From Tubulanus polymorphus (taxonomy: Eukaryota; Animalia; Nemertea): a stretch of DNA of 64,000 nt. Location of the stretch: contig NC_134031.1 in the NCBI RefSeq assembly GCF_964204645.1, positions 11,968,088 through 12,032,087 on the forward strand, written 5' to 3'. Shown here piece after piece: positions 1 to 25,419 of this stretch; position 1 is the first letter of the stretch; every line of letters begins with the position of its first letter. The notes below the pieces were generated by a model that made no database searches, was not told the DNA's origin, and saw nothing but the letters and a program-made list of their open reading frames with translations. Made by a program: the position numbers and the translations under genes.

Positions 1-29
1 AAACTAAATCCATTTCAAATAAACCTTAC

Positions 30-3000
30 ATGGAAAATGTTAGAAATTATATTGATTCACTAGAAATAAAAGATACAATTGAAATATTAGAAACATTACG
101 TAGTAAAATTGGTCCTGCAGCAATTATATTTAGATTTTCTAAAGGTACAACAATAGAAGATTATAGTAAATTTAATGAAATAATAGAAAAAATACTAGAT
201 TTGATAACAGATGTTGAATATCCAAAAATTAGTATCTCTGGGAAAGTAAGTTTTATAAAGTCAGAAGAAAAAATGAATTATAATATTCAAACACTCTCTG
301 AAGAAATAATTTCAAAAACACAAATAAAAGAGAAGTTAGAAAAAATATTAAATGAATTTAAACGTCATATTGAAGAAAGATATTTTGAGGGTTCTGGCTT
401 AACATTGAATGAAATTATATATTTAGATTTAAATGTTTATAATACAAAAAGGAATAAAACATCAAAAAGTAATAAAATGTTTAAAAATGATTCAAACTTT
501 ACAACAGAAAAGGATATGAAAGCATCAAGTTATATCAAATTACCGTTTACAACAAAAGCAGTAATAAATATTCAAAATGAAGATAATAAATGTTTTCTAT
601 GGTCAATTATTAGTTGTTTACACCAAACAGAAGATATGACGCATAGTTTTAGAATAACAAATTACCAGAAATATGAAACATTATATAAAATTGATCAATA
701 TCCAGTAACTATAAAAATGATTCCTAAAATAGAAAAAATTAATAATTTAAAAATAAATGTATTCGAATTAATGCAATTACCAAAGACAAAAGGTGAAAAT
801 ATTAAAGATTATACATTGGAAGCTTTATATTTAACAGAATATTATGATGATGAAAATGCTATAGATTTGTTATATTATAAAAAAGATGAAAATGAACATT
901 ATATGTGGTTAAAACAAATTGATTTATTCTTTAGAACGGAAAGTGATCATCATCGTAAAATTTATCTATGTAGAAAATGTTTATCTAAATTTATGACTGA
1001 GAATACATTATTAAAACATAAAGAATTATGTGATAATAAAGATTTTTGTAAATCAATAATGCCAACAGAAAAAGATTATAAATTGAAATTTACTAATCAT
1101 AAATTTAAGAATATTGTTCCATTTGTAATTTATGGGGATTTTGAATCGTTGAATAAAGAATTAACTAATCAAGATAGAAAAGAAATATATAACAAAAAGC
1201 AATTATTAAAATCAATGGATAAAGGAAATGAATTAAATGAAGACGCAACACAAGACCCACCAATTATAAATACAATTAAAAAAGTTCATCAAAGAGCTGC
1301 TGCTTATGGAATTTACATCAAATCAAATTATCCCGAATTATATGAAAGTCAATATATTTCTTTTAGAGGTGAAAATGTAGTTAATGATTTTTGTGATAAA
1401 ATGATTGAATTAGAAAGTGATTTTACAAAATTATTAAACAAAAATAAAAGAATAGTTATGACAAAAGAAGATGAAATTGATTTTAATTATGCAACTCATT
1501 GTTGTTATTGAGAAAAACGTTTTTATTCATTTGATAAAAGAGTTAGAGATCATGATCATTTGAATTCAAAATATCGTGGAGCTGCTCATGAAGATTGCAA
1601 TTTACAAGCTAAAAAAGTAAATTTCGTACCAATATTATTTCATAATTTATCAGGATATGATACCCATCTATTTATAAAACAATTATCGGGAAAATTGGGT
1701 GCAATTAATCAAGAAATAGAAGAATATAATGCTATGAATGAAGCAAATGTAAGAAAATATGATTTTAAACTATTAGCTAAAATATCTGAAAATTATATTT
1801 CATTTCAATTTGGTTGCATTAGATTTTTAGATTCTTATAGATTTCTAGCAAGTTCATTAGATAATTTATCAAAAAGTTTAGTTGATAATGATTTTGTTAT
1901 AACTCGATATTATTATCCAAATGACCAAGATTTTAAATTATTGAGATATAAAGGCGCAATTCCTTACTCATTTTATAAAACACACGATGATTTTAATGTA
2001 ACAGAATTATTAAAAGATCAATTTTATGATCAATTAAAAGAGGAGTATGTGAAAGACGAAGTGTTTAATAGAACATTAAATATTTGGAACCATTTTAAGA
2101 TGAAAAATCATGGGGAATTAGTTGATTTATATTTAAAATCAGATGTTATGATATTGGCTGACATATTTGAAAAGTTTAGAGAAGTTAATCTAAACCATTT
2201 TAATGTTGACCCTTGTTATTGTTATTCAAGTCCTGGTTTAACCTGGCAATGTGGTTTAAAATATACAAATGTAGAATTAGATTTATTAAAAGAACCAGAT
2301 ATGGTTTTATTATTTGAAAAATCAATTAGAGGTGGAATTAGTGGTGTTATGGGAGATAGGTATTTTAAAGCAAATGATGAATATAAATTATTATATATTG
2401 ACGCCAATAATTTATATGGTTGGGCAATGATGCAACCTCAACCATATAAAATTTTTATATTAACAGAAGTTGAAAATGATGATAAAACTAATTGGGAAAG
2501 CGCAATTATGAGTTTAGAAGATGAAGCACCAATTGGTTATTTCTTTGTAGTTGATTTAGAATATCCTGATAACATAAAGTTTAAAACAAGAAACTTACCT
2601 TATTGCCCAGAACATTTAACTGTAGATGATAGTTATTTAAGTGAATACCAGAAGAAAATAAAACCGAAAGATCATGTTTTTACAGAAAAATTAATACTTA
2701 CTCAAAATAATAAATACAATTATATTGTTCATTATAGAATGTTAAAATTTTATCTAAAACAAGGAATGAAATTGAAGAAAGTACATAGATATATTGAATT
2801 TAATCAATCGAAGTGGTTAGAAAAATATATAGATTTCAATACTCAACAGAGAACAATATCAAAAACAGATTTTGAAAAAGATTTCTTCAAATTAATGAAT
2901 AATAGTTTTTATGGTAAAACATGTGAAAATATTAGAAATAGAAATGATATTGAATTAGTGAATAATTCTGAAAGATTAAGACATTTACAATCAAGTCCTA

Positions 3001-4715
3001 GACATTTAGGAAATAAAAGATTTGAAGATTATTTAACAGCAGTAAAATTAAAAAGAACGTCCATGAAATTTAATAAACCAATATTTATAGGTTCAACCGT
3101 TTTAGAAATTTCAAAGCTATTGATGTATAATTTTTATTACAATGTTTTACAACCATTGTTTGGGGAAAAACATATAGAAATTCTGTACTTCGATTCTGTA
3201 ACGGCCGACACCCCAATATTATTAAAATGTAATAATAAAATATTGGTAAGAAGAATTTCAGAAATAATTCCAAAACAAAATGAATGTTATATTTCATATG
3301 GTGAAAAAGAACTAATACAAATAAATGGTTTAATGGATGTTTGGACAAGAAATGGATGGAAAAAATTAAAGAATATTACTAGGCATAAAACAAATAAGAA
3401 AATCTATAGAGTTAGAACTAAATTAGGATTTGTAGATGTTACAGAAGATCATAGTTTAATTAAACGAAATGGTGATAAAATAAAACCAACTGATATAAAA
3501 ATTGGAGATGAATTATTACATAAAAGATATTTCCAAAGAATGAATCATATGTCATTCGATGAAATTATTGATAATATTTATAATATAGAACACGAAACAT
3601 TAGAAGAAAAAGAATATTTTATCAAAGGATTTTTCATGGGTGATGGTTCAGCAGGTGTGTATAAATATGTTTGGGGTAATAAATATTGTTGGTATTTATG
3701 CAATCAAGACTTAAGATTATTAGAAAGAATTAAGAAATTCTGTGAAGAAGTTTATCCAAATAAAACATTTAGAATCATGGATGTTATGAAATCATCAGCA
3801 GTTTATAGAATACTTGTAAATAATCCTAAAGATTTTGCTATAGAATATAATGATGAATTCTATATTCATGCAATAGTGAAAAGTAATACTTCAACAAAAG
3901 AAAAGATAGTTCCAGATTATGTATTAAATGCAAAAAATAATTTAAGAAAATGGTTCTTTATTGGATTCTACGCAGCTGATGGTACTAAAAAATTTACAAA
4001 GGATAAAAAGATAACCTTTGCACAGAAAGGAAAAGTTGCTATATCAGGGTTAAATATATTATGTAATTCATTAGGCTTCAATATGAATATTGGATTGATT
4101 AAATCTAAACCAAATTGTTTTAATCTAAGCCACACAGAAAAAGATTTAACTGAAGAAGTTAAAGATTTATTTGAAATATATAACCCAACTGACTATGTTT
4201 ATGATTTATCAACAGATGATGGAACATTCAATTCTGGGTTCCCATTAATCCAAAAAAATACGGATGCGTACATACTAAAAATCAAGACAAATGACATAAC
4301 AAAAGACTTAAAAACATTAAAACATCATTTTGATTTTAGTAATTATCCCAAAGATCATGAACTATTTAGCAATGATAATAAAAAGATTCCTGGTAAGTTT
4401 AAAGATGAATTAGGAGGTGATGAAATGATTGAATTTGTTGGGATAAGAAGTAAAATGTATAGTTACAGAACAAAAGATCATGAAGCTAAAAAGTTAAAAG
4501 GAATAACTAAACATGTGGTTGGTAAACATATAGAATTTCAAGATTATATAAAGTGTTTATATAAATCAATTGTAATGAAACACAAAATGAATTGTTTAAG
4601 ATCAGAAAATCATGAGATGTACATTAATGAAGTTGAAAAAACTAGTTTAAATCCATTTGATGATAAAAGGCATATTTCAGATGATGGTATAAAAACATTA
4701 CCTTATGGCCATTAA
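30..4715 (+). pseudogene. Protein-primed family B DNA polymerase (pPolB) with EndoVII/HNH insert and intein; one in-frame TGA at 1509-1511; frame open to the window edge
   Basis: ORFs 30..1511 and 1560..4715 share a frame and are colinear with the 1343-aa PolB of copy B. Motifs YGDFES, FHNLSGYD, YIDANNLYGWAM, KLMNNSFYGK, YFD/TD. TGA replaces the last Cys of CYYC. Confidence 0.93.
3195..4259 (+). mobile_element. Intein (355 aa) with LAGLIDADG homing endonuclease in PolB catalytic motif C
   Basis: In-frame insertion relative to copy B (YFD|TDSY vs YFD|SVTADTP...LIQKN|TDAY). Block A SVTADTPIL, block B VTEDHSL, LAGLIDADG motifs FIKGFFMGDGS and FFIGFYAADGT, block F YVYDLSTDDGTF, terminal KN followed by +1 Thr. 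Confidence 0.95.
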
Positions 4716-6013
4716 AACATAAAATCAATATCATCATACTCGAAATCACTATTGGATTCTTCATTTTCATTTAATTGTTCAGGTTCTTCTTCCATTCCAT
4801 TTTTCTCATTTAAATAAAGTTCTATCTTGTTCCACATTTCATCTCGCTCTCTTTGTTTCTTTTTGTTTGTTAATTCATAAAATGGAATTATAATATCTAG
4901 GTTTAAATAATTTACAATCTTATTTAAAAAGAATTCATAATTTATTGAATCTGTTATTCTATTTTCCAAATAATACATTAATATTTGTTTAAATATTTTT
5001 TTTATATTTTCCATATCTTCTTCTGTTAATTTAGGTTTTTCATAATAATCGTTAAATAATAAATATAAATACATTTTCTTTTGTTTTGTGTTAAATGTTG
5101 ATGGAATAATTGTTTTTATAATATCTTTTTTAGTTATTTCACCATTTTTATTTTCTATTATTTTCATTTTTTCAAGCCATTGCATATATTCTGGTGTATG
5201 ATCTTCTATAGAAAATATTTTAAAAATTTCATCTAGATAATTTAATTTTGGTTCTATGAGAAAATCTCTAGTTTTTTCTTCACCCCATAAATTCTTTTGC
5301 CATCCACATTCAACACAAAATAACACAGTACCTTCTTGTCTTAAGGTCGCATAACTACATTGTGGGCATTTTCGTTTATAATTTATGGGTAATAGATCTT
5401 CATTAAGCTCTTGGTATTTTCTTACGTTTTCTTTATGTTTTATTGTTCTATTATGTAGATTTGAATTACTTGTTGTAATAATCAATTTACAATATTTACA
5501 ATAATATGTTTTTCTTGTTAATTCATTATATTGTTTTTCTAACTTTTCAACTGTTTCTTTATTATCTGGTAACGTTTTCTCATATTTTATTTTTTCTAAT
5601 AAATTATTTTTTCTTTCATTGAATTCAGTTTCAAATTTATTAGAAATTTTATCTATATGTGCTTTACGAAATTGATGATTCTCCCAATCTTCTATATTTT
5701 CAGGGCTATATTTTACTTGACAAGGCTCACAGAAATGATCTTTTATATTATCCTTATCATAGAATAAGAAAGGTCTTTTCCAAATAACTTCAGGTTCAAC
5801 TTCAGCAGAATTACTATCAACATTAGCCGTTGCGCCATTAATTCTACACTTCTCTGAATGTTTTTTAACATAATTTCTTGAGAATAATTTATTACATTTT
5901 GGACAGTTTATTTTAGGGGGTTTATAATTTTCATCATGTTTTTTCATATGTCGAGCCATATTACTTTTTCTTAGAAGTTCACCACAAATTTCGCATGCTA
6001 TCTTCTCATCCAT
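4712..6013 (-). CDS. Multi-zinc-finger protein fused to a poxvirus A2/VLTF3-like late transcription factor domain
   Basis: N-terminal C2H2-type fingers, then the zinc ribbon CPQC...FCVECG and LTEEDMENIKKIFKQILMYYLENRITDSINYEFFLNKI...DEMWNKI. This matches my recollection of vaccinia A2 (IFKHLVFFCQEN...TINYSFFLDKI). Confidence 0.75.
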   Translation of the reverse strand: MDEKIACEICGELLRKSNMARHMKKHDENYKPPKINCPKCNKLFSRNYVKKHSEKCRINGATANVDSNSAEVEPEVIWKRPFLFYDKDNIKDHFCEPCQVKYSPENIEDWENHQFRKAHIDKISNKFETEFNERKNNLLEKIKYEKTLPDNKETVEKLEKQYNELTRKTYYCKYCKLIITTSNSNLHNRTIKHKENVRKYQELNEDLLPINYKRKCPQCSYATLRQEGTVLFCVECGWQKNLWGEEKTRDFLIEPKLNYLDEIFKIFSIEDHTPEYMQWLEKMKIIENKNGEITKKDIIKTIIPSTFNTKQKKMYLYLLFNDYYEKPKLTEEDMENIKKIFKQILMYYLENRITDSINYEFFLNKIVNYLNLDIIIPFYELTNKKKQRERDEMWNKIELYLNEKNGMEEEPEQLNENEESNSDFEYDDIDFMF

Positions 6014-6081
6014 TTATTAAGGAAAAATTTTATTAAAATTAATTTTTAGTGATGAGCGGTAATTTTTTTATGTTATAAATA

Positions 6082-6840
6082 ATGGTAGAATTAAAAGAAT
6101 ACAGAATATTTATTGATTCTAGAAAACTTACAAATTATAAATCTCATAATTTACTAGTACAATTAGATAGAGAATTCAAGAATTGTGTAGATTTAAAATT
6201 AGTTAATATAAGTTTATGTAATTCTTTTTATAATATATCGGATAAAAGTCTAGAACATTTAATTTTTTCAATCTTTTACAAAAAAAGGAATAAATGGTTT
6301 TTTATATATTTAAAACCAGGATTATATAATTTAGATACATTAACACAAGAAATTAATAGAAAAGCTCGAGCTAAATTAGGAAGTGATTCCGGATTTAGTA
6401 TTAGAATTTTAAAAAGTGCTAGTTCTAATAAAATAAAGATTAGGTTAGCTAATGACGAACAATTTAAATTTACAATAAGAAAACCTTTAGCTAAACTGTT
6501 AGGAATTGCACCAGATACCGTTACAGCATACGCAGAAGGTAACTCAAATATAATACCTTTTACACACTTTTATATTTATTGCAATTTAATCGATCCTACA
6601 AAAACATTTGAAGCAACTAAAGATACAATTTGTAATTCTGGTTTATTAAATATTTTACCATTAAAAAATGTCAAACAATTTGGAACTCAAATAAATTATA
6701 ATTTAACTGAATGTGATTTCAAACCTTGTATTCCACATTTCAATAATTTTAAATTAGAAATAAGAAATCATAATGGTTATTTAATTGATTTGAATAACTT
6801 TCCTGTAATTTATGAATTAGTTATAAGATGTAAAGAGTAA
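6082..6840 (+). CDS. Minor capsid (penton, single jelly-roll) protein
   Basis: Size and motifs typical of Polinton PX/penton (IFIDSR; FYIYCNLI; FKLEIRNHNGYLIDLNNFPVIYELVIR); conserved in copy B. Confidence 0.7.
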   Translation: MVELKEYRIFIDSRKLTNYKSHNLLVQLDREFKNCVDLKLVNISLCNSFYNISDKSLEHLIFSIFYKKRNKWFFIYLKPGLYNLDTLTQEINRKARAKLGSDSGFSIRILKSASSNKIKIRLANDEQFKFTIRKPLAKLLGIAPDTVTAYAEGNSNIIPFTHFYIYCNLIDPTKTFEATKDTICNSGLLNILPLKNVKQFGTQINYNLTECDFKPCIPHFNNFKLEIRNHNGYLIDLNNFPVIYELVIRCKE

Positions 6841-6856
6841 TTTTTCACCTATATAA

Positions 6857-7213
6857 ATGAATATAACTGTTGGACCGAGTATATGTTTTGGATTTGATTT
6901 TAAACGTGAGAAAGAAATGAAATTTAACATTAATGATGTAATAACACATATCAAAAATATTGCATTTTCTAATGAAACAACATTTGAGTATGAAACAACA
7001 ATAGATAAAGAAACTTTAAATGTAGAAAAGATTACTAATTTAATTAGAGAATCTTTAAGATTTTATGAATTAGATGAAGATTTTATCATAGATGATATCA
7101 AAAAAATAATAATTGAAATATATGATAATCATAAAACTAGTAATGAAATAAATGTTGAATTAATCATAAATAAGTTAACTAAATATTTTGAAGATAGTAA
7201 TTTTTTTGATTAA
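6857..7213 (+). CDS. Conserved hypothetical protein
   Basis: Near-identical homologue at 26192..26539; TAAATG start. Confidence 0.75.
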   Translation: MNITVGPSICFGFDFKREKEMKFNINDVITHIKNIAFSNETTFEYETTIDKETLNVEKITNLIRESLRFYELDEDFIIDDIKKIIIEIYDNHKTSNEINVELIINKLTKYFEDSNFFD

Positions 7214-7216
7214 TAA

Positions 7217-7438
7217 ATGAGTGATAATAAGTGGATAATAACTGGATTATATAATGGCGCATTACTATCAGTTGGAACTGTTGGTTATTCAATGGTATTA
7301 AAAAAAGTATTCAAAATGGGAAGTGTTAATGTTGATAGATTTGATATAAATGATATTCTAAAATTAACATTAGCAGTTACTTTATCTAATTTAACTATTG
7401 ATTATTTGGAAAAACAAAAATATATTCCTCCCATATAA
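7217..7438 (+). CDS. Small putative membrane protein
   Basis: Two hydrophobic stretches; near-identical copy at 26540..26761; TAAATG start. Confidence 0.7.
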   Translation: MSDNKWIITGLYNGALLSVGTVGYSMVLKKVFKMGSVNVDRFDINDILKLTLAVTLSNLTIDYLEKQKYIPPI

Positions 7439-7462
7439 ATACATAATTTTTTTGTTAAATAA

Positions 7463-7885
7463 ATGGCTTCTGCAATTATAACTATTATAGGATCGGCAAT
7501 TGTTAACGCTTTAGCATTTACTGGTGGTGGTTATTTATTTAAACATATTGATAAAAATAGTTCATTAGGAGAACAAAGAAGACATAACTTAGCGTTAGAG
7601 AAATACAATAAAGCTGCAGAAGAATATAGAGAAAAGAGGCAAAACTATATGGATTATATTAACAAAGAATTATATGATCAGAAGATTTCACATAGAGATT
7701 TTCAATCAGTTGATGATGCAATGAGTTTATATAACGCAGTAACAAATAAAGAAAAATTACATCTATACAAACCTAAATTATCAGATTATTATACCCCAAG
7801 TAAAGAACAACAGAAATATGAAATAATATGGATTTTAGGTGGAACTGTTATTGTTATATTTGTTGCTTATAAATTTACTAATTAG
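7463..7885 (+). CDS. Putative membrane protein (N- and C-terminal hydrophobic helices, central coiled coil)
   Basis: Identical protein at 26786..27208; TAAATG start. Confidence 0.75.
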   Translation: MASAIITIIGSAIVNALAFTGGGYLFKHIDKNSSLGEQRRHNLALEKYNKAAEEYREKRQNYMDYINKELYDQKISHRDFQSVDDAMSLYNAVTNKEKLHLYKPKLSDYYTPSKEQQKYEIIWILGGTVIVIFVAYKFTN

Positions 7886-7904
7886 TAATTTTTATTCTAA
7901 ATAA

Positions 7905-8339
7905 ATGGAAGATAAAGTTGATAGTATTGATATTATTCCTCATGATATAAATAAAACTAAATTAAAAACATATTTAGAAAAACAAATATTAGAATTTGAA
8001 AGTGACTTAAAGATAAAAAAGAAAAAATATTTAAAAAGTAAAATTATATATTATTTGATTATCAGTGGTTCGGTTACAATTAGTTCCGTAATAACATTTC
8101 TAGCAATATTCAGCCCATTAACACCTTTAGCTATATCAATTGGTGTATTAGGATTAAGTTCAAGTGTTTTAACTGGTATAAGTTCAAAATTAAATATAAA
8201 AAGTAATAAAGAAAAAATTAAAACTAATATAAAAGAAATTAATAAATTAAAGAACACACTAGATTATATAATAAGTTTAAATGGTCATATAACAGTTGAA
8301 GAACAAGATAAATTATTAAAAGAATTAATAAATTATTAA
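7905..8339 (+). CDS. Two-TM membrane protein
   Basis: Hydrophobic hairpin IIYYLIISGSV...VLTGI; near-identical copy at 27228..27662. Confidence 0.75.
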   Translation: MEDKVDSIDIIPHDINKTKLKTYLEKQILEFESDLKIKKKKYLKSKIIYYLIISGSVTISSVITFLAIFSPLTPLAISIGVLGLSSSVLTGISSKLNIKSNKEKIKTNIKEINKLKNTLDYIISLNGHITVEEQDKLLKELINY

Positions 8340-8356
8340 TTTTTTTAATTATATAA

Positions 8357-9745
8357 ATGGTAGATAGTTTTCCAAAAGCTTTCCAATATAATAAATCAAT
8401 TAAATATAATATTCCAGCAATAGATTTTAATAAAGATATTACATATAGAAATGAAGTTTTAGATTCATTAATTGATTTATATATTTATGTTACTGAAACT
8501 AATAATTTTAATGCAAAGATGGAAAATATATTTCATGTATATTTAATTAATTTTAAAAAATTGAAAGGTGAAAAACAATGGTTATTAAAATCTAATATGA
8601 AGTATTGGCAGAACCAATTAAATTTTGCTGTTTATTGTGCAACAACAGGATGCGGAATTTGTTGGAATGATCATTTGAATAATTCTAAATATAAATTAAT
8701 TCAAAGTTTATTTAGATTTCATACATACTTTCAAATCAGAATAATATTAAATGAATTAGAGTGCGCTTTACCAGGATCTAGGTATTTCAAAGAATTAGAT
8801 AATAATATCAATTTATCTAAGTTTTATAAAATTTGTAATGAATTTAATATAGATATAAATAATTCTGATTTTAGAACAAAAATTGGAACAATAAGATCAC
8901 TTCCTTGCCCTAAAAAGATTGCAGAATATTGTGCACTTCCCATACCATCTAATAGCTTTTATAATATCTATAATAATAAATTAGGTTATGGTAAAATAGA
9001 AACAAAAGATTTAGAAACATTAAATTTCAATAAATTACCAAAATTTTATGATCATTTAAAACAAGAAAACAATAATGGTTGGGTATATTTTATTTTAGAG
9101 AATAGTGAAGGTTTTACTAAATCAGGTATAGAAAGAATAAATCAATCTATTAGAACTTATTTGATATGTATTCTAGGATCACAAGTTGAAACAAGATCAC
9201 CGATAATTGGAAATTTGAATACATCATTCGATACACAAAAACAATTTAAAGTTTTATTTGAAGATTCAATTCATAATGATAAAAATAGATCGATTCCAGA
9301 AAACATTATAAGATATCAAAATTATTTAGATAAATCTCATGTAAGACTTAATTATTGTATAGGCCCTAATCTATTAATTATTTCTAATGATTTAGTATTG
9401 AAGATGGGAAATATAATTGGTTATAATAATCTAATTAAAACTGCAACAATAAATAATTCATTTGGGTTAAATGATATAAATAAAAAGATTATCACTGCTC
9501 CAAAATTAATGGAAGGTGAAAAAAAAAAAAAAAAAAAAAAAAAAACAGAAACTAAAACTAAGAATATTAAATTAAATAATGATTCTAAAATAAAAGATTA
9601 CAATACATCAGAAAATAATAGAACTGATAAAATTCAACATGATATAATTAAAACTGATAATGATAATAAATCACATGAAAATACTAAATTAGCTATAACT
9701 TGTATAGGAATTGTAATCGGAGGAATATTATATTTTAAATTTTAA
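8357..9745 (+). CDS. C-terminally anchored putative virion membrane protein (462 aa)
   Basis: C-terminal TM LAITCIGIVIGGILYFKF; homologue at 27679..28980. Confidence 0.75.
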   Translation: MVDSFPKAFQYNKSIKYNIPAIDFNKDITYRNEVLDSLIDLYIYVTETNNFNAKMENIFHVYLINFKKLKGEKQWLLKSNMKYWQNQLNFAVYCATTGCGICWNDHLNNSKYKLIQSLFRFHTYFQIRIILNELECALPGSRYFKELDNNINLSKFYKICNEFNIDINNSDFRTKIGTIRSLPCPKKIAEYCALPIPSNSFYNIYNNKLGYGKIETKDLETLNFNKLPKFYDHLKQENNNGWVYFILENSEGFTKSGIERINQSIRTYLICILGSQVETRSPIIGNLNTSFDTQKQFKVLFEDSIHNDKNRSIPENIIRYQNYLDKSHVRLNYCIGPNLLIISNDLVLKMGNIIGYNNLIKTATINNSFGLNDINKKIITAPKLMEGEKKKKKKKKTETKTKNIKLNNDSKIKDYNTSENNRTDKIQHDIIKTDNDNKSHENTKLAITCIGIVIGGILYFKF

Positions 9746-9761
9746 TTTTTTTATTATATAA

Positions 9762-11192
9762 ATGGAAGTAGAAGGTGTAGAAGATATTGGAATGGATCCT
9801 TTTGATGAACCTGGTATAACTGATGAACAACCACCTGATTTTGATGAAACAAGTTTTAATGATGGTAATGAAACAGCATATAATTCTAATTTAACTACAC
9901 CCCAATTTATTGACAAAGCACGTTCAAAGATAAGTATTGAAAATGAAGTACCAGAAATAACAGAAAAAGAATACAATTATCATGAAATTATTCATGATTT
10001 TAAACCAATGTTAAAAAAATCTGGTTTCAATATATCAAATAAAGGTATGGATCATTTAGTAGAAGATTTGAAATATTTAAATGGTGAATATTATTGGAAA
10101 TTGAAAGGTGACTATTATTTTAAGATTTCAAATCTTAAAAGTAGTGATAAAATAATAACACAATCAACTTTAAATTTATTAGAACAATCTAGAATTAAGA
10201 AAATCAATAATGATGTTATAACTGATGTTACAGAAAAAGAAAGATCTGATAATTTAAAAGAATTTAAACAAAGAAATGCTAAATTTTTTAAGATAATTAA
10301 TGAAATTTTAGAAACAGAAACAACTTCTGAACAGAATATAACTTCCAAAACTAGTAAACTTAAATCAAATAAAGTTCCAATTGAAAAACTTTTACCGAAT
10401 GGATTAATTGATGCAACAGATCAAGAATTAGAAGATTTAGATATATTTTCTGATAAAGCAATTAGAGAAATTATTAGTATAAGACTTGCATCTAATAAAA
10501 TTGCACATGATAAAAGTATAAGAGATTTTAAAATTAGAACTTTAGAAAAAGAATTAACTGATAAAAATAAAGAAATAGAAAAAATAAAATCTGATTTAGA
10601 TCATCAAGTAATTGATGAAATAGAATATAGGCAAAAAGAATTACGTTTAGAAAAAGAAAAAGATGATTTAGAATATAACATAGAATTACAAAAAGAAGAA
10701 ATTAAATTATTGTTAAAATCATATGATTATAATATTAATAGATTAAAAGTTATTTTTAAAGATTTGTTGATTAAACCAAATTCTGAAATATCATTAAAAG
10801 ACAGAATAAAGTTATTATTTAAATTAGAAGGAATAACAATTCTTTCAATTGTAACAGCTGTAACTATGTTATTTACAACAATTAGTTTAGCAATATCAAA
10901 TGCTTTGAAATCTACTCCTACTCCCAATAAACCAGATAAACCTCCAGGTAATAATTCTATACAAGATAAAGTTAAGGATGGTTTAAAGAAATTAGCAAAA
11001 TATTTATGGGAACTATCTAAAAAATCTGCTGCAGCATTGCCAGGAGTTATTGCTTCAATTGTTGGTTTTATATTGAAATCTGCAGGAAACATTATTAACT
11101 TTGCTGCTGAACATATTATTTTATTTTTAATTACAGTTGTAAGTGCTATTATTTTTGGTTTAGTAAATATGATATCAAAAAATATCAAGTAA
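9762..11192 (+). CDS. Coiled-coil membrane protein (acidic N-terminus, C-terminal hydrophobic helices)
   Basis: Charged heptad-rich centre and multiple hydrophobic segments; homologue at 28997..30457. Confidence 0.75.
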   Translation: MEVEGVEDIGMDPFDEPGITDEQPPDFDETSFNDGNETAYNSNLTTPQFIDKARSKISIENEVPEITEKEYNYHEIIHDFKPMLKKSGFNISNKGMDHLVEDLKYLNGEYYWKLKGDYYFKISNLKSSDKIITQSTLNLLEQSRIKKINNDVITDVTEKERSDNLKEFKQRNAKFFKIINEILETETTSEQNITSKTSKLKSNKVPIEKLLPNGLIDATDQELEDLDIFSDKAIREIISIRLASNKIAHDKSIRDFKIRTLEKELTDKNKEIEKIKSDLDHQVIDEIEYRQKELRLEKEKDDLEYNIELQKEEIKLLLKSYDYNINRLKVIFKDLLIKPNSEISLKDRIKLLFKLEGITILSIVTAVTMLFTTISLAISNALKSTPTPNKPDKPPGNNSIQDKVKDGLKKLAKYLWELSKKSAAALPGVIASIVGFILKSAGNIINFAAEHIILFLITVVSAIIFGLVNMISKNIK

Positions 11193-11233
11193 ACCATGAT
11201 AAAAAATAAATAATTAATTTTTTTGTTAAATAA

Positions 11234-12482
11234 ATGAGTGGGAGTTATATAAGTCCTTCCAAGATTTCTAGAATATCTAATGCTATTAAAGCAGAAAGAT
11301 CACATCATATAATTACTCATAACCCTTCAAATATTAATCCCGATGAAACTTTATATGTTAGAATCCCTCGATTAACACAAAATACTTTTTATGTTCCAAA
11401 TAGTATTTATTTATCAGCCGATATAAAAGTAACTGGCCATGATAACAATTATGTTGTTGATAATGTTGGAAGATATTTGATTAAAAAATTAACTATAAAG
11501 ATTGGTCCGGAAACAGTTTTCTCATTAGATGATTATAATTTATTTATGCATTATAAAGATTTATGGTTAACTAAAGAAAATAGAAATAATATGATATTTC
11601 AAGGCATCCAATCGGAAAACCATAATAAATTAAGATCTGAAGCCAATAATGCAGTAGTAACTCGTGCCACAGATAATTTGATTAAAAAGATTTATGGAAG
11701 CAAATATAAAATTCCATTAGACTTTGAATTGATAAATAATAATGCACCTTTATATAAATACGCAATTCAAGAAGATATTATATTTGAGATAACATTTGCT
11801 CCTGTAAATGAAATTGTATTATCTAGCGTTGTTAAAGATATGGGTTATAAATTATCGAATATATGTTTAGAATATAACACAGTAACTAATGAAAATATTG
11901 CTAGCACAATTCAAACTCAATACAATCAAGGATTTTCATTATTATATGATTATATTGATAAATTTAAAACTGTAACTATTAATGCAAATGATGAAATAAT
12001 TAATGAGAATATTAACTTTCCTAGAAGATCTATTAAAGGTATATTAATATTTTTTTACTATTGCAACATATTCCAATGGTGCAATAAATGTTGATAATTA
12101 TTATAATCCTGAAATAACAAAAGTAGAAATAACTATTGAAGGTATAGCGAATAAAATATTTTGTCAAGGAATGAGAATGATTGATCAATGGCCAGAAATT
12201 AAAAAACATTTTATGAATGAAAAAGTAAAATCATTTGAAAATTGTAATATTAATCAAATTGATTATTATACCGGTAATAAATATGCATTATGGTTAGATT
12301 TTAGAACAACTGAAGATAATTCATTACATGGTTCTGGAAAAAAACTACAGAACACTAAAGATGGAATACAATTATTCATGAAAAAGAATAAAGGAATCAA
12401 AAATTTTAAAATGCATATTTATATTATATCTGACGCACAATTAAATATTGTAAATTCACAATTAGATAGTATTCAATATTAG
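11234..12482 (+). pseudogene. Major capsid protein (double jelly-roll-like), +1 frameshift in T-run near 12050-12056
   Basis: Colinear with 30530..31776. About 415 aa when repaired, beta-rich and next to INT/ATPase. T7 here versus T6 in copy B. Confidence 0.7.
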
Positions 12483-12512
12483 AAATATAAAGTTAAAATT
12501 AAGGATATATAA

Positions 12513-13640
12513 ATGAGTGGTAAAAAAACTCCTAATATTAAAGAACAATATTTAAGAAATTTATATTACAACCCTGAGAGTTCGGTTGCTTATTCTTCTA
12601 CTAAAAATATATGGCGTAAAGTAAAACAAGATAAATTAGATAAGATAATCCCACAAAATTTAGTTAAACATAAAGATATAAATGAATTTATGTTAGAACA
12701 ACCAACATATACAACACATAAAAAAATTGTTAGAAAATATAAAACTCGTAAAACTATGGTAAGTTATGTAGATCAACAGTGGCAAGGAGATTTAATTGAT
12801 ATGAAAAATGTTAAGAAAGATAATGATGATTATTGGTGGTTATTGAATATAATTGATATTTTTAGTCGTTATGTATGGAGCTTCCCACTTTATAGAAAAG
12901 ATGCTGTACAAACATCAAATGTTTTAAGAAAATTTCTTTCGGATGATAAACTAAAACCAGAAAAAATACAATTTGATGATGGAAAAGAATTTGATAATTC
13001 ACTTGTTCATGGACTTTTAGATTTTCATAATATTAAATATTTTTCAACAAAATCGGATAAAAAAGCAGCAGTTGTTGAACGATTTAATAGAACATTAAGA
13101 ACAAGAATGTGGAAATATTTTACAGCAAATAATACTTTTAAATGGATTGATGTTTTACCAAAATTGATAGAAGGATATAATAATTCTTATCATTCTTCTA
13201 TTGGAATGAAACCTATTGATGCTAGAAAACCTGAAAATGCTGAAATTGTTTGGAATAATTTATATGGAGCATTTCTTGTAGATGATTTTGGTGAACCTAA
13301 ATTTAAAGTTGGTCAAAATGTTAGAATTTCTAAGTATAAAAAGATATTTGATAAAGGATACGATCGAAATTTTACTAGAGAAATATATAAAATAAAAAAG
13401 GTAATAACAACTAAACCATATGTCTATAAATTAGAAGATTTAGATGGTGAAGAAGTTGATGGATATTTTTATGAAGAAGAATTAAGTTTAACTACTGAAA
13501 ATCTAGAACAAGAATATAAAATTGAAAAAGTACTAAAAACAAAAACTATTAAAAGAAAAAAATATTCTTTAGTAAAATGGGTTGGATGGCCAGATAAATT
13601 CAATGAATGGATATTATCAAGTAAAATTAAAAATATATAA
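12513..13640 (+). CDS. Retroviral-like (rve) integrase with C-terminal chromodomain
   Basis: DDE motifs WQGDLIDM, IQFDDGKEF, VVERFNRTL; chromodomain YKIEKVLK...LVKWVGWPDKFNEWI. Confidence 0.95.
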   Translation: MSGKKTPNIKEQYLRNLYYNPESSVAYSSTKNIWRKVKQDKLDKIIPQNLVKHKDINEFMLEQPTYTTHKKIVRKYKTRKTMVSYVDQQWQGDLIDMKNVKKDNDDYWWLLNIIDIFSRYVWSFPLYRKDAVQTSNVLRKFLSDDKLKPEKIQFDDGKEFDNSLVHGLLDFHNIKYFSTKSDKKAAVVERFNRTLRTRMWKYFTANNTFKWIDVLPKLIEGYNNSYHSSIGMKPIDARKPENAEIVWNNLYGAFLVDDFGEPKFKVGQNVRISKYKKIFDKGYDRNFTREIYKIKKVITTKPYVYKLEDLDGEEVDGYFYEEELSLTTENLEQEYKIEKVLKTKTIKRKKYSLVKWVGWPDKFNEWILSSKIKNI

Positions 13641-14249
13641 ATGAATAAGGAATTATTCATATTTGAGCCTCATAATATGTTAATTTCTGGCGTAACAAAT
13701 TGTGGAAAAACTTATTTCATACTAAATTTATTAGAAACTGTTTATAAAAACTATTTTGATAATATAGTATTATTTTGTCCAACATATGAATTTAATCAAA
13801 CTTATGATAGAAATATTACTAGGAATAATAAATTTATTATATTAGATCCTAAAACAGTAAAAGAAAATTTAGATAATTGTATAAAAATAGCAATTGATAT
13901 TTATAAAGGATCAAATACATTATTTATCATAGATGATTGTGCAAATTTACATGATTCAAAAATTAGAGAAAGTGAGTTATGCTATTTAGCTTTCTCTGGG
14001 AGACATTTTGGGATAACAACTTGGGTTTTAAATCAAAAATATAATTCAATTGTTAAAGACTTTAGAGAAAACATTAGATTTCTAGTTTTATTCTACAATA
14101 AAGATAGAAAATCAATGAAAAATGCACTTGAGGAAAATGATATTATTCCACATGATTTACATAATGAATATATGGATAAGTTGAAAAATATTAAAAGATC
14201 AAAATTACTATTTAGATTACAACACCCATTTAAATATGAATTTATTTAA
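13641..14249 (+). CDS. A32/FtsK-like genome packaging ATPase
   Basis: Walker A GVTNCGKT, Walker B LFIIDD, SGRHFGIT motif. Confidence 0.92.
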   Translation: MNKELFIFEPHNMLISGVTNCGKTYFILNLLETVYKNYFDNIVLFCPTYEFNQTYDRNITRNNKFIILDPKTVKENLDNCIKIAIDIYKGSNTLFIIDDCANLHDSKIRESELCYLAFSGRHFGITTWVLNQKYNSIVKDFRENIRFLVLFYNKDRKSMKNALEENDIIPHDLHNEYMDKLKNIKRSKLLFRLQHPFKYEFI

Positions 14250-14515
14250 ATTCAACTAGCTTGTTAATCTAATTGAATTCTAGTTGAATTCTAGTTATTG
14301 GTAGTTGTAACAAAAATCAACTAGATTTAACAATATTTTAACTAGCTTGTCAATCTAGTCTAATTCTAGTTACATTCTAGTTGAATTCTAGTTGTTAGTA
14401 GTTGAAACAAAAATCAACTAGATTTAACAAGAAATAAACAAAAACAACAATATTTCAACTAGCTTGTTAATCTAGTTGAATTCTAGTTACATTCTAGTTG
14501 AATTCTAGTTGCAAC
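14250..14515. repeat. Complex CTAGTT-based tandem/inverted repeat array
   Basis: About three units starting CAACTAGCTTGTTAATCTAGTTGAATTCTAGTT, with internal inverted copies TCAACTAGATTTAACAA. Confidence 0.8.
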
Positions 14516-14542
14516 AACACAACTAATTTATTTGTTTTATAA

Positions 14543-15148
14543 ATGGGAGGTGAAAAGAAAATAAAATCTAAAAATGGTGATGTTCCAATTGAAAAAACTT
14601 TAGATAATTTAGGAATAACAGAAACAAAATTAACTCCAGATGATGGTGCTTTAAATAATGTTACAACAAATAATAATTATGAATATTATCTTTATTGCAA
14701 ACATCAATTAGAAATATTAATAGCATCTGGAAAATGTAAAAAATTTGTCGATAAAAATTTAACTTATAATGAATTAGATACAATGAAATCAGTTGAAATT
14801 ATTAGATTATTTAAGATTTATGAAGCCGCGAGAACAGCTAAAATTAATGACGCGATATCAGAAAATGTAGTAAAAGGTTATAGTAAATTATGTAATTATA
14901 TACTACCAATTGAAGATGAAAATAGATTATATTCCGATTTAAAAAATGATTATTTAGTTATGACTGAATTAAATAAATGGATTGGATATTTATCATTTCA
15001 ATTAGGTGGATTTATGACATTATTATCAACTGGGGTTATAACATTTTCAAATATTGAAAGTAAAAATATTTCTATAATAAATGAGCGAAGTGAAAGAAGT
15101 GAAGGAATTAACTGTGAAGAAAAAACCGAGAACTCAGAAACAAATTGA
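14543..15148 (+). CDS. Conserved hypothetical protein with C-terminal hydrophobic segment
   Basis: Homologue at 34991..35593 (minus); TAAATG start. Confidence 0.75.
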   Translation: MGGEKKIKSKNGDVPIEKTLDNLGITETKLTPDDGALNNVTTNNNYEYYLYCKHQLEILIASGKCKKFVDKNLTYNELDTMKSVEIIRLFKIYEAARTAKINDAISENVVKGYSKLCNYILPIEDENRLYSDLKNDYLVMTELNKWIGYLSFQLGGFMTLLSTGVITFSNIESKNISIINERSERSEGINCEEKTENSETN

Positions 15149-15449
15149 ATGGTCTCGACAATTAGGAATTAAATCACAAGAATATAAAAAAGCTGTAAAA
15201 GAAAAAATAAGTAATAAAAATGTTAATAAAAATGGTGAAAATATTGTTATTTCTACTCCTTCTGATAGTAGAATATTTGATAAATATTTATATTTTACAG
15301 TTGGATTTGTAATTGTATTCATTTTGATTGGGTGTAATTGGTATAAGAAATCAAATAAAATTCATGATATTAGTAATTCTGAACCAACTGCTATCAAAAA
15401 TGAAAGTACTTCTGAAATTCCAAAATTGATAATAAAAAAAATGGATTAA
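15081..15449 (+). CDS. Basic N-terminus, single-TM protein
   Basis: Homologue at 34591..34998 (KQIxWxRxLG motif); TAAATG start. Confidence 0.7.
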   Translation: MSEVKEVKELTVKKKPRTQKQIEWSRQLGIKSQEYKKAVKEKISNKNVNKNGENIVISTPSDSRIFDKYLYFTVGFVIVFILIGCNWYKKSNKIHDISNSEPTAIKNESTSEIPKLIIKKMD

Positions 15450-15601
15450 TATTTTAGAAAAAAAGCAAAAAAAATAATTTTTTTTAATTAATTGAATATC
15501 TCACTACTTTTGTCTATCTATGTGGAGCAATTAAATTGTCCAGATAAGTCATTTCGGATTCTAGATAACCATTATTTTTATTAATTTATTTTTTAAAAAA
15601 T

Positions 15602-15928
15602 TTAATCAACAATTTCTAAATCATGATGACCGTCTTCATTTTTCCCATGATATATTATTTTAAATCCTACTAAATCTTTCAATTCCTCCGTACTCAATGA
15701 AACCCATTAATCAGGTAAAAACACTTTAAATTCTCGTGATGTACTAACATTACAGTAGCTTAAATTAGCTGATACTTTCTCTCCATATTTAGTTTTTATC
15801 TTTTCTAATTTCAATATTTTATGTTCAATTTCTTTTGTAACATCAACTAACTTTTTTATTTCAAATTGTTTTTTTGCTGGTTTTATTCTGTTATTTATTG
15901 TTGCTAAGAATGCTTTTCTATCTCCCAT
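15602..15928 (-). pseudogene. Small conserved protein (possible OB-fold/ssDNA-binding), internal TAA at 15707-15709
   Basis: Reads through the stop as FLPD*WVSLSTEELKDLVGFKIIYHGKNEDGHHDLEIVD, matching the intact 113-aa ORF 25061..25402. Confidence 0.75.
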
Positions 15929-15931
15929 TTA

Positions 15932-15996
15932 TTAGGAAAAAAAATTACTTGTGGTGATGAGTGTTAGGAAAAAAAAATTACTTGTGGTGATGAGTG
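15932..15996. repeat. Two ~32-bp direct repeats in the subterminal region of Polinton A
   Basis: TTAGGAAAAAAAATTACTTGTGGTGATGAGTG x2. Confidence 0.85.
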
Positions 15997-16046
15997 GTGT
16001 CTCGTCCTCTCGTCCTCTGGTATGAAAGCCACATATTCTAATTACT

Positions 16047-17932
16047 TTTGACATTCCTAAAATTCTACAGAGCTCGGATATTACCTTCGACTCGAAGTTC
16101 CTCCCTTGGTCGGAATGCAGTACGGCAGGAATTCCAAATTTTTTCACGTAATGGTCATGTAAAACACGAGCCACACCGACGGCAGACTGATTTCGAGTCG
16201 CAAACGCTAACGCGTATTTCGTGAAATGGTCCGTGACCACGAGCACATCCTCGTAACCACCAGAGGGCTCCAATTTCATAAAATCCACACAAAACATTTC
16301 CATAGGATAAGTCGTCGCAATCGGTACCAGAGGCGCAATCGAAGGTGGACTTTTGAACAACACGCAACGTGAGCACGTTCTCAGATATTTCTCCACATCC
16401 GACTTCATTCCTGGCCAGAAAAATCTACCACTTACGAGTGCCATGGTACGATCACGTCCGGGATGCGACATCTCACCATGTAACAAGCGCAATACCATCG
16501 AGCGCTCGGACTTCGGTAGGACGATCTGGAAGAGTGTTTGTCCATCCATCCATTTCTTCCGACACAATACACCTTCCTTCATCACTAAATTTGGTAAATG
16601 TCGCTTGAAACGCTTCTCTTCTTTCGTTTTCAGAAAAACTTTGTTACCGGTTTCCAAAGAAAGAATAAGGCTACGTAAAACAGGGTCTTCCTTTTGTTTC
16701 AAGGCAATGTCCACCTCACCGACCACAAAACGCCTCTCCGACTGTCCTTCGGTAACCATTAAACCCTCGCAAATCGCTTCTATCACATTCTCCCCGAGGC
16801 GAAGCCTCGATAGAGCATCCGCATCGGTGTTGTTGGCTCCGCTGCAGTACACCAACTCCAAGCGAAAAGGATACGGCAGTTCCCCATTGCGTTTCCGAAC
16901 TAACACCACAGGTGACGAATATGGAGAAGATGAAGGCCGAATTATTCCTGCGTCGAGCATCATTTTCAAGTGTTGACGCACTTCATCTATCATTCCGGGC
17001 GGCACGCGGCGATAGCGTTCTTTAACAGGAGTATCTTCTGTCAAACGGATCCGATGTTTCACCAAGTCAGTCCCTGTCGAACCCAGCTGCTAACGACCCG
17101 TCATGACTAGAAACATCCTGATTCGATATCTTTTTGCTACTATAAACACTATTTACATTCGTTTCACGTTTCGAACTAATACCAGTACAAGCATCAGTGA
17201 ACTTTACTTCATCCGTTCCCACATCTTTCCCGCAGCTTCTCGGTGATCCAATCCAGCTAACCTCACAGGATCGACGTAGAAAACGTTAGCTAACGGAGTC
17301 TTCGCAGGAATTTTTACGGAGGTAGCCCCAATATTACGTACGATCACGGATACCCTATTATACTTACCCCTATTTACAGACGAAACTGACGGCGCAACGA
17401 TTAAATTACCGGGAAGCGTGACGGAAACTTGCGATGTCATCACGTTGAGATCTCCTAGTACTGGAGTTCGCAATATCCCTTTCAATACCATCTCTGAGTA
17501 GGGACCAACTTCGAAAAAAGTATCAGTTTTCACAACAGCATCTTCTGCCTCACTCATCTGATTCACATGTGCCTTCCATGGCAACGGCAAACTTTCCTCA
17601 GACGCATCTAACTGTCGTAGCAGATTTGTTCCTAAAATCACCGGGACTTGTTGCTGATAATCAGTCGTTGGGACAACCAGACATAGCACCCAATGGAACT
17701 GACGTCCTACATCGACTTTAACTTCGGAATAGCCCAAATACGGCAACGAGTGTCCACCGGCGGTAGTTGCATCTAGGATCTCTTCCAACGGGTTAATTTG
17801 AATTCCCATTTCATCAACAAATTTTTTTGACAAAGTCGATACCATGGCCCCGGTATCTATTAATGCGGTACAGCTCCTCCCGTTCACTAGCACATCCATT
17901 TCACTGGCGGGTCCGAGCAAACCATCTATCAA
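16047..17932 (-). pseudogene. Gypsy pol: aspartic protease, RT/RNase H mostly deleted, integrase truncated by Polinton A
   Basis: ALIDTGAMVS protease; RT start VVLVRKRNGEL fused directly to the RNase H end ADALSRL; HHCC zinc finger; VDFM and LHSDQGRNFES core; frame break at 17065-17204. Confidence 0.9.
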
Positions 17933-18012
17933 CTCCTCCTTGGTTATAGTGTCGGGTTTTGGACGTTCGCGTTGGGGGCGTGGTCGTCCCTCTCCACAGC
18001 CCCTTGACCGTT

Positions 18013-20011
18013 TTAATTCACATCCCTCGATGAAGGTCTCGATCCATTCCCCGGACAGTTTTTATAAAAATGCTCTGCTACTTTGCCACACTTAAAACAT
18101 CGATAAGTAGGCGGAGGCATAGGTGTAGGCGTCGCTGGCATCTTGCTCCACTCCGGGCAATTTTTTATATAATGGCCAGGCTGACGACATTTATAACATG
18201 CCTTCCCTACACCGACATCTTTCTCAAGTCTCCTAAGTCGACTATCCATTTCGGAAACCTTGGTGACCAGATCCTTCATTTCTCGATGCATATCATCTAA
18301 CTTTTTCTCCAATTTCACCTCGAAATCACGGGATGTACCGGTTTCCTTCACTATATTCGACATGGCGGCTCGATGCCCCACTTCCCGCGGTATCGCCTTA
18401 CTTCGAGCGGATGATCCCAGAGACTCTTTACTGATCACGAGTTCCTGCTCGACGACCCGAGCTTCAAGAACCAAATCTTGGAAAGACGCCGCGGTTTGCA
18501 ATAACGGACGCACAGCAATTTTTATTTGGGCATTTACCAACCCCGCACAAAACTGATTTCTGACGACCTCGTCCGAAATATCACATGAAAGTCCACGTAA
18601 ATCATCCAACCGACAAGCCCACGAAGCAACATCTTCGTGCGGTTCCTGTTTTGCCGTATAAAAATTCATCATAACCTGTGAGGGTGACAATACACTAGGC
18701 CTACCGAAAATCACTGAAAATTTGTCGATTACCTGTTTCACAGTTACAGACTTGCCCATTGACAGCAATAACTTAGCCGCCGCACCCTTAACCGACCGAC
18801 GAATAGCAGAAATTAAGGTACTGGGACTTATAGTAGTGTGACAGTGGTATTATTGAGTTTCAACAGCAGTCTCAATTCATAGGCAGTGCTGCCATCTTCT
18901 AACGATATCTTAAACTATTCCGCATTCATTATCCAACTCATTCAACAGTGCCATCTTTCGTGATAAAACTTTCGAACTTTGTTCCAGCGTCAGCTTTCAT
19001 ATAACTTTTTGTACTGAGATTGAACCTTAGGAAAATTACGACTAATGCGCGTCAGTTGCTCGTAAGTATTTGCTTCTGCGAGCAACGACTGCCGCTGAAG
19101 AACATAATTCAAAGTTAATGTTACATTTTTCTGGGAAACTGTCACGTATAATGTCCTTTTGTAATGATTTCGGTTGAATAATGATATTTTTATGGGCAAC
19201 GCTGTTGCGCTAACGACAAATTAACGGTCTTTGGCAATGTCATTCGCTAATGAGATGGGTTGGAGAATTGACTATATATACTGGGGTTTTTGGACCGTGG
19301 GGGAGACCGCTAGAAATTTTTAGATCGTTGAGATCGGTTCGTGAAATAAAAGTAATTTTGAAGACAGGAACTCTGTGTGTTGCGACTCGTTTATTCTTGG
19401 ACGTTTGTTAACATTCTATCACTCAAGTGGAATTCAAAGATCCCGTTAGTGACAGTAGGATCACCCTGTAAACAATTAACCTCATTTTTCCATTGCCTAA
19501 AATCCGCTTCTCCTTTACCCCTTTCGCCGCTAAATGAACTTATACGGATATTGCTCCCGAAAGAAACAAACGGGAACCCGCCGGAATTTTTATTAGATAA
19601 TTCCGAGAACCCAGGTTTGGCTGTCAAAACAGGGGATGAAAGACCGAAATCAAGGGTTCTTTGTATTCTCTCTTTTTTTCCTGACCCCCGCTGAACATTA
19701 TCTACAATCTGTTGAGCACGGTTTAAGGCCATCTTATCCAATTCAACCTGTAGTTGCTCGACCACAGAACCTACGTCACTCAAATCTTTGAGGGGAAAAA
19801 CGGTTACCCGATTCGAGTTAATAATGATGTGATCCCGTGTAGCCAATAGTTTCTCCACACTCTCTACTCTAAAAAACACTACCAAATAACCATCATTTCC
19901 TTGCTTCAATAGTTCTATTATACCATGAGAACGTAACGCCCTCTGAAGCTCCTCAGCAGAAACTAATTGTGGGTCAACCTGCGCAACTAACCCACGATCC
20001 TGTAATGACAT
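18013..20011 (-). pseudogene. Gypsy gag (PNMA-like capsid plus CCHC zinc knuckles), split by solo LTR
   Basis: Removing 18837-19458 restores ...CLQGDPTISPSTLISAIRRSVKG...; knuckles CYKCRQPGHYIKNC and CFKCGKVAEHFYKNC. Confidence 0.88.
18837..19454 (+). mobile_element. Solo LTR of an unrelated LTR retrotransposon (618 bp)
   Basis: TGTGAC...GTGACA ends, 4-bp TSD GTAG (18833-18836 and 19455-19458), internal TATATA and AATAAA. Confidence 0.82.
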
Positions 20012-25032: not shown

Positions 25033-25060
25033 TCAATTTCAATAAAAATTTGTATAATAA

Positions 25061-25402: not shown

Positions 25403-25419
25403 GAAAATATGTAAAATAA

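Follow-up and report, generated by a model that had tools for sequence, protein, structure and literature searches.

How did an intein-like insertion come to lie in the DNA polymerase of a transposon in an animal genome, and does it still move? The question is raised by a window of 64,000 nucleotides (the whole stretch of DNA analysed here) from Tubulanus polymorphus, a palaeonemertean ribbon worm, which holds two Polintons: A, with the insertion in its polymerase gene, and B, without it. An earlier note on this locus had proposed a homing intein that moved from a giant-virus (NCLDV) polymerase into a Polinton during co-infection, with B as the empty allele. We hold, with a probability of roughly three in four, that this is a Polinton polymerase intein which is predicted to splice itself out and which probably propagates through cleavage of polymerase genes that lack it, followed by copying into the cut.

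A pol-c intein predicted to splice interrupts a Polinton polymerase

1..15930, no strand: Polinton A, partial, with polymerase, central gene block, integrase and A32 ATPase; right boundary approximate
3..3194, plus strand: N-extein of the Polinton A protein-primed family B polymerase (PolB; PF03175, E 3e-19), running off the left window edge
3195..4259, plus strand: full-length class-1 intein of 355 aa, recognised from domain profiles, alignment and a fold model; Hint N-terminal part at residues ~1-110, two-motif LAGLIDADG endonuclease at ~135-310, Hint C-terminal part at ~320-355
4260..4715, plus strand: C-extein of the Polinton A polymerase, starting with the +1 Thr of the catalytic D/TD motif

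The 355-aa in-frame insertion described earlier is borne out: positions 3195-4259 translate without a stop, from SVTADTP to PLIQKN, in frame between YFD (ending at 3194) and TDAY (starting at 4260) of the Polinton A polymerase. All the motifs that had been named for it are present, namely Ser1, TxxH (T83-x-x-H86), two LAGLIDADG motifs (GFFMGDG with D150 and GFYAADG with D262), block F (VYD, D337), the terminal Lys-Asn and the +1 Thr. Ser1 and the +1 Thr are nucleophiles of the class-1 type and N355 is the C-terminal Asn. In an alignment of 83 rows T83, H86 and D337 are each invariant, D150 and D262 are 99% conserved, and K237 is also kept in the copy A intein. The penultimate residue is Lys354 and not His, which is usual but not universal in class-1 inteins; relatives have K, S or H at this position, Lys being common to P0007, P0008 and giant-virus relatives.

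Profile searches and structure agree with this reading. TIGR01445 (intein N-terminus) reaches 29.9 bits, above its cut-off of 24.5, and PF14528 (LAGLIDADG_3) 28.1, above 22.5, while PF14890, at 30, stays under its cut-off of 35.8. The closest match among solved sequences is PI-PkoII (E 2e-6); matches to tissue factor (E ~0.08) were set aside as chance. A single-sequence fold reached a pLDDT of 36, and the alignment-based AlphaFold model (83 rows; pLDDT 93.7, pTM 0.92) was used instead. Its top Foldseek matches in the PDB are PI-PkoII (E 2.5e-17), the archaeal VMA inteins TliVMA and PhoVMA, PI-PfuI, PI-SceI and I-DmoI, and in BFVD polymerase entries of giant viruses come out on top (phycodnavirus, Pandoravirus, Marseillevirus, Megavirus). 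The N- and C-terminal parts form a Hint fold, as TIGR01445, the model and Foldseek all indicate, so that the domain match which the earlier note had asked for was found, and the two LAGLIDADG helices with their acidic residues belong to an I-DmoI-like fold (rmsd ~3.2 A).

The insertion lies between YxD and TD of PolB motif C, and its assignment to the pol-c site stands, with YFD/TD here against YGD/TDS in Mimivirus (PMC549080, available part). The proposed likeness to the Mimivirus intein holds for the first Ser, the last Asn and the +1 Thr in the same part of that source. Homologues that lack the insertion exactly and in frame are found in copy B and within the P0005 family. We conclude that 3195..4259 is a real, complete pol-c intein, predicted from sequence and model to splice.

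The interrupted Polinton is one of several nested elements beside an animal gene

12513-13640: Polinton A integrase (rve and chromo)
13641-14249: Polinton A A32 ATPase
15932..20652, minus strand: Gypsy-like LTR retrotransposon remnant adjoining A, with gag zinc knuckle, aspartic protease and integrase
20653..38925, no strand: Polinton B with both ends, 462-nt terminal inverted repeats that are 99.6% identical
20962..25032, plus strand: Polinton B polymerase, open and intein-free, 1356 aa from stop to stop
24487..24516, plus strand: empty pol-c site of B, a candidate endonuclease target, junction at 24501/24502
39762..57111, plus strand: host gene with a CCDC50 N-terminal domain, in four coding segments (39762-39851, ~49778-49916, 49992-50094 and 56941-57111)
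53740-55630 and 60391-61037, both minus strand: broken elements by the host gene

Both elements carry Polinton hallmark genes (PF03175 on A, with B assigned through the 72-77% amino acid identity of the two polymerases; PF00665 and PF04665 on both). B has the terminal repeats and a 6-bp target duplication (CACAAG) within the Gypsy element. The ends of A are outside the window: it runs off the left edge, and no right terminal repeat of A was found within the window. A Capsid_N match at 11234-12094 is weak (E 0.003, below cut-off), and the window holds no Pfam match to a maturation protease. The earlier note was silent on two defects of copy A: its polymerase frame meets a stop codon ahead of the intein, at 1509-1511, and Gypsy truncates the element at ~15.9 kb. 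Copy A is a decaying member for which a role as active donor is unlikely, and the active copies are likely to be others in the genome.

Copy B is uninterrupted at 24501/24502, as had been claimed: it reads YFDTDSY unbroken in translation, and the self-BLAST of the window breaks at the insertion (23-3194 matching 21351-24501, and 4258-4708 matching 24500-24950). Its description as an allele of A is contradicted by the comparison of the two genes, whose nucleotide identity is 74% and between which 8 of the 30 bases around the site differ; B represents a sister family. The central block of A (6077-12520) is 86-90% identical to that of B (25414-31812) overall and 98% identical over ~0.9 kb at ~7273-8173, which implies that the two families exchange DNA, whereas their polymerases, integrases and ATPases are only 67-88% identical, and the integrase-ATPase pair of B is in the opposite orientation relative to A. 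The sequences point to sister families with recent module exchange, not to alleles.

The mobile elements are nested, with Gypsy adjoining the truncated A and the complete B inserted in the 5' region of Gypsy. A single LTR-like end remains of the Gypsy remnant (15932-20652 and 38926-39700), and we take a site near 39250 to be primer-binding-like and to belong to this element. In B, at least three central genes contain stops or frameshifts. Each B terminal repeat includes an imperfect palindrome of ~270 bp (20650-20921 and 38657-38926; 86% self-complementary), and the right one contains the beginning of the polymerase gene, so that a short mirror ORF arises (38341-38616, minus strand) in which a zinc-finger-like N-terminus is fused to the end of the neighbouring gene's sequence. 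Both polymerases also contain an endonuclease VII-like (His-Me finger) segment, with PF02945 just under cut-off, at residues 597-645 of the B polymerase (P0002); it is a second endonuclease-like insert besides the intein.

The four segments of the host gene correspond to residues 1-168 of a Tubulanus polymorphus protein with zero amino acid differences, and their junctions have GT-AG ends where inspected. The homologue search for this gene returned one protein among 349 candidates, with the NCBI name Tubulanus polymorphus. Since the flanking exons are identical to a protein of this species, the animal context supposed by the earlier note is confirmed. Remains of two further elements, a LINE reverse transcriptase and a piggyBac-like transposase, both broken, are found in the introns of the host gene or downstream of it.

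The intein belongs to a Polinton clade related to giant-virus inteins

Among the best 120 of 215 matches to the intein, the top relatives sit at the same site in other Polinton-type polymerases. Identity to the copy A intein is 63% for P0004, 49% for P0005, 47% for P0006, 46% for P0007 and for P0008, 42% for P0011 and 41% for P0010; the other relatives among these 120 are in RNA-primed PolBs (~40% and below) and topoisomerase II-type proteins. The nearest relatives outside Polintons are giant-virus PolB inteins, at 41-42% identity. A search of representatives (best 150 of 2052) added two fragments: P0386, which is 65% identical and is followed by a Polinton C-extein, and a piece of an intein whose nearest relative is P0006. 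In all, at least eight Polinton-type polymerases besides copy A hold a related intein at pol-c.

Two trees were built with midpoint rooting, a quick one from 105 inteins and a more careful one, under a mixture model, from 53 selected rows. All nine Polinton-type inteins fall on one branch (support 100/100), which is present in both trees and has a stem of 0.42 changes per column. Its sister (93/94, not starred) comprises 14 inteins of RNA-primed PolBs, three of them from giant-virus MAG loci of IMG/VR (L001, L002 and L010), and three of phage-type PolBs. The proposed affinity to NCLDV is therefore upheld as far as giant-virus members occur in the sister group, but this group also holds the phage-type inteins. 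The simplest reading of the trees is a single entry into protein-primed polymerases from a large-DNA-virus pool, its direction being suggested by the nesting of the Polinton clade in a far more diverse RNA-primed set under midpoint rooting only. The move from an RNA-primed PolB would then have occurred once and long ago, and, since the nearest relatives of the copy A intein are in Polinton-type polymerases, its immediate donor was most likely another Polinton.

Several side observations concern the wider family. The phage-type PolBs P0012, P0393 and P0394 (PHROG 262) have inteins nested among those of giant-virus PolBs, which suggests traffic of inteins between large phages and giant viruses. 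An annotated phage collection yielded one weak match (27%), and no protein-primed PolB was found in 125 loci from IMG/VR and metagenome contigs. In the green alga Chloropicon primus, P0085/P0155, annotated as DNA polymerase delta catalytic subunit, have a related intein at YGD/TDS. Close relatives of the pol-c intein also occur at a non-allelic site, after TDQD or TEGD, in topoisomerase II-type proteins (P0009, which holds two inteins, P0078, P0090 and P0105-P0121), where they form one clade within the PolB inteins.

Occupied and empty polymerases and a putative conversion tract

Only 2 of the best 120 relatives of the B polymerase (of 5625 matches) hold the intein and 118 gave no match to it, a share that understates intein frequency since an empty query ranks empty proteins higher. 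In a polymerase tree of 125 rows (six rows lacking motif A were dropped, and P0007 was too distant to include) the 6 occupied polymerases are spread over six positions, with 119 empty ones around them, and the starred branches require at least five changes. At the deep level intein groups follow polymerase groups and the identities of inteins and exteins are similar, as in A against P0004 (intein 63%, extein 59-61%). Such similarity is compatible both with exchange between close kin and with inheritance accompanied by repeated losses. No further occupied members were found among 106 and 63 cluster members.

P0007 departs from this pattern, with an intein 42-49% identical to the others and exteins only 16-32% identical. 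It is a strong PF03175 polymerase that BLAST cannot align to the B polymerase, and it contains what we take to be a VSR-like motif. By an AU test (p = 0.079), P0007 need not lie inside the other Polinton inteins; in either position, the gap between its intein and its extein identities favours a jump. From Pfam scores only, we infer that P0007 is of the Alpha type and A and B of the Beta type, following the definitions of Starrett et al. in the available part of PMC8502044.

The named proteins among the best 120 of 5625 relatives of the B polymerase are from a dragonfly and from an entry labelled Sulfurimonas, both intein-free. The UniRef protein P0189, which bears the label Sulfurimonas sp., shares 63% identity with the polymerase region of Polinton B and falls into one group with it; eukaryotic or viral DNA binned with bacterial sequence is its probable source. 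Many empty relatives (P0169, P0172, P0178-P0185 and others) have D-C-D in place of D-T-D at the catalytic motif, which would alter both the +1 nucleophile and the target site.

The P0005 family gives the clearest picture of occupied and empty copies side by side. Its cluster has 136 members, on contigs of up to 1.0 Mb among those listed, may span several genomes and belongs to another genome than that of the window's worm. Of 15 members listed, 7 are occupied, 6 are empty and 2 do not cover the site, the occupied and empty proteins differing by an exact insert of 346 aa. All 10 fixed extein differences between the two groups lie between residues -7 and +44 of the insert, and none lies in the other ~1,140 positions; identity between occupied and empty members is 71-75% in this tract and 96-99% outside it. 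For 10 of 10 differences in 51 of 1191 positions the probability is ~1e-14, taking the window as fixed and the sites as independent, although the tract was delimited after seeing the data, with the insertion point as anchor. A pattern of this kind is expected from homing in which the flanks are co-converted from a diverged donor. In the P0008 cluster the empty member P0144 is 99% identical to the occupied P0008. The coexistence of occupied and empty copies that the earlier note had described is seen in the mixed P0005 family; copy B is an empty member of a sister family and no allele of A.

Around the copy A site a possible trace is much fainter:

3183..4271, plus strand: flanking codons, four on each side of the intein, third-position G+C 6/8 against a background of 0.146

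This 8-codon window has the highest third-position G+C in the polymerase gene, and its G/C-ending codons may be the remnant of an old co-converted tract, a weak, post hoc suggestion. As another candidate mark of co-conversion we considered the 'TDA' start of the C-extein shared by A and P0386, which was rejected: 13 of 118 empty relatives have TDA.

Copies in raw reads

Raw reads were taken from a separate study with the same species label (12% of run X5) and may come from another animal. The genome they represent contains many intein-bearing copies. Median depth is ~178 over the intein, ~302 over the A exteins and ~481 over the B polymerase, from which we estimate that about one-fifth to one-fourth of the A and B family polymerase copies are occupied, a rough figure since B reads also land on conserved parts of A. 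These depths are ratios and not copy numbers, the window at 23001-43000 offering no single-copy baseline. The stop at 1509-1511 is apparently private to copy A. In the 40 of 761 difference rows examined, 11 of them in the intein, 4 of 5 intein differences that segregate among reads are at third codon positions, against 4 of 6 at first or second positions for those nearly private to copy A. The numbers are small and fit a constrained intein family with a decaying copy A.

Alternative explanations

Could the Polinton be non-animal DNA joined artificially to animal sequence? Its G+C of ~23% is far below the ~36% of the host flank and the junctions of Polinton A with its host lie outside the window. 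Against this, B sits in the Gypsy element with a 6-bp target duplication, its end is 837 bp away from exon 1 of the worm gene, the reads of the separate study cover the intein deeply, and 1367 reads leave the B terminal repeat into unlike flanks, which implies many insertion sites. We give contamination or artefact next to no credence. The transfer envisaged by the earlier note, directly and recently from a giant-virus RNA-primed PolB during co-infection and with copy B as the homing target, draws on a real kinship, in that giant-virus PolB inteins use the same site and are the nearest ones outside Polintons, both at 41-42% identity and as top BFVD matches. The tree of inteins largely refutes it: other Polinton inteins are much closer (63%, 65%) and form a clade on a long stem, and the third-position G+C of the intein (0.152) equals that of the host polymerase gene (0.146), as expected after long residence. 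What survives of the NCLDV origin is the kinship and not a recent donor, and a direct transfer of this kind seems very improbable to us.

An intein that truly splices but no longer moves here deserves closer attention. It would have descended vertically with family A, with an endonuclease that cannot cut the resident sites, homing having happened earlier, in free virus stages or other hosts. The 8 of 30 site bases and the 26% of the gene at which A and B differ are in keeping with this, as are the similar intein and extein distances for most pairs; long vertical descent with many losses also fits the latter. No read joint that skips exactly the intein was found for family A among the 15 of 25 joints examined, and a minority of reads (28-31 of ~175) have a small indel inside the endonuclease region. 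Yet both LAGLIDADG aspartates and the conserved lysine are kept in an open frame, all eight full-length Polinton inteins found (337-355 aa) retain the endonuclease domain, although the full-length query favours such inteins, and the P0005 family has a sharp conversion tract among near-identical copies. On balance we regard loss of mobility as unlikely and prefer a self-splicing intein that likely spreads by homing.

Discussion

For this Polinton intein, established chemistry suggests how splicing would proceed. The polymerase would be translated with the intein, Ser1 and His86 would drive the N-terminal acyl shift, the +1 Thr would take over the extein, and Asn355 would cyclise, restoring the D-T-D motif. 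The freed LAGLIDADG domain (D150, D262) could then cut an unoccupied pol-c site in a close Polinton relative, whether this is integrated or replicating in the same nucleus, and homologous repair from the occupied copy would bring in the intein with a short flanking stretch of polymerase; it is the P0005 tract and the patchy distribution that suggest cutting in close relatives and copying by repair. The lineage may have reached protein-primed polymerases in a single event, drawn from the pol-c inteins that large DNA viruses carry, with later moves mostly between close Polinton families and at least one long jump. We lean, by a little over even odds, towards the broader view that Polintons have their own long-lived homing inteins, the first in animal nuclear genomes, which still invade empty polymerase genes across the many germline copies of animals and can jump between the two Polinton polymerase classes despite their deep divergence.

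With the catalytic motif interrupted by the insert, any active carrier has to undergo translation and splicing in animal cells, which is relevant to the question whether Polintons still use their own polymerase for replication. The common ancestry of Polinton and giant-virus inteins is an independent line of evidence for a past encounter of Polintons with large DNA viruses in a single cell. Where one animal genome holds many copies with and without the intein, the homing cycle can be put to a direct test.

The earlier statement that inteins are essentially unknown from metazoan nuclear genes agrees with a 2026 preprint, which in its available part describes them as unknown from metazoan nuclear genomes. 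Green et al. 2018 place eukaryotic inteins in fungi, algal plastids and large viruses (PMC5784728, available part). The intein described here is a counter-example in an animal nuclear genome, though in a virus-like element and not in a host gene. Our literature search, which InBase and Repbase lay outside, found no Hint-bearing intein reported from a Polinton polymerase or an animal nuclear genome, and no earlier intein from a protein-primed polymerase. The accessible parts of PMC12220804 and PMC13768754 mention inteins only in general, and the word 'intein' is absent from the accessible text of the adintovirus paper PMC8502044 and one supplementary file. A Polinton-specific intein lineage is apparently undescribed.

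Several known systems resemble the copy A intein in part. Chilo iridescent virus shares with it an intein in a DNA virus of animals, and this intein reportedly sits in ribonucleotide reductase. Invertebrate iridoviruses, to which it belongs, carry inteins (available parts of PMC549080 and of PMC5784728, where they are counted); it is a free large virus with a Gln-ending intein, whereas A passes down the germline of its host. Inteins in viral-like DNA polymerases are described from nuclear scaffolds of Klebsormidium, Tetrabaena and a labyrinthulid, together with inteins of Anaeramoeba (Gallot-Lavallee et al. 2023, PMC10710043). Like A they are virus-borne and in eukaryotic nuclear genomes, and spread within a genome is proposed there, but in the portion available to us the carriers are algae and protists with viral-like polymerases, and the words 'polinton', 'maverick' and 'metazoa' are absent from the accessible text and two supplementary files. 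HNH and VSR endonuclease insertions are reported in Polinton pPolB2 (Jeong et al., bioRxiv 10.1101/2023.08.22.554363), which we take to be the source behind the remark of Krupovic et al. 2024 that endonuclease inserts in pPolB may 'result from intein invasions' (PMC11071308, available part). These inserts are, like the intein of A, endonuclease domains in animal Polinton polymerases. They are described as nuclease domains, and the terms 'intein', 'Hint', 'homing' and 'LAGLIDADG' are absent from the main text of the preprint as accessible to us, whereas A has a complete Hint domain, a split catalytic motif and exact empty counterparts.

A close parallel is with the pol-c (position III) inteins of family B polymerases, known from Mimivirus R322 and archaeal PolI (Ogata et al. 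2005, PMC549080, available part). These and other Nucleocytoviricota PolB inteins share with A the site and the combination of Ser1, terminal Asn and +1 Thr; the Mimivirus and archaeal inteins also share with it a length of ~350 aa and a LAGLIDADG domain, and the Nucleocytoviricota PolB inteins are its nearest outside relatives in the tree and in BFVD. The hosts differ: known pol-c inteins interrupt an RNA-primed replicase of giant viruses or archaea, whereas that of A interrupts the protein-primed polymerase of an integrating, multicopy element of the animal germline, and the Polinton inteins form their own clade.
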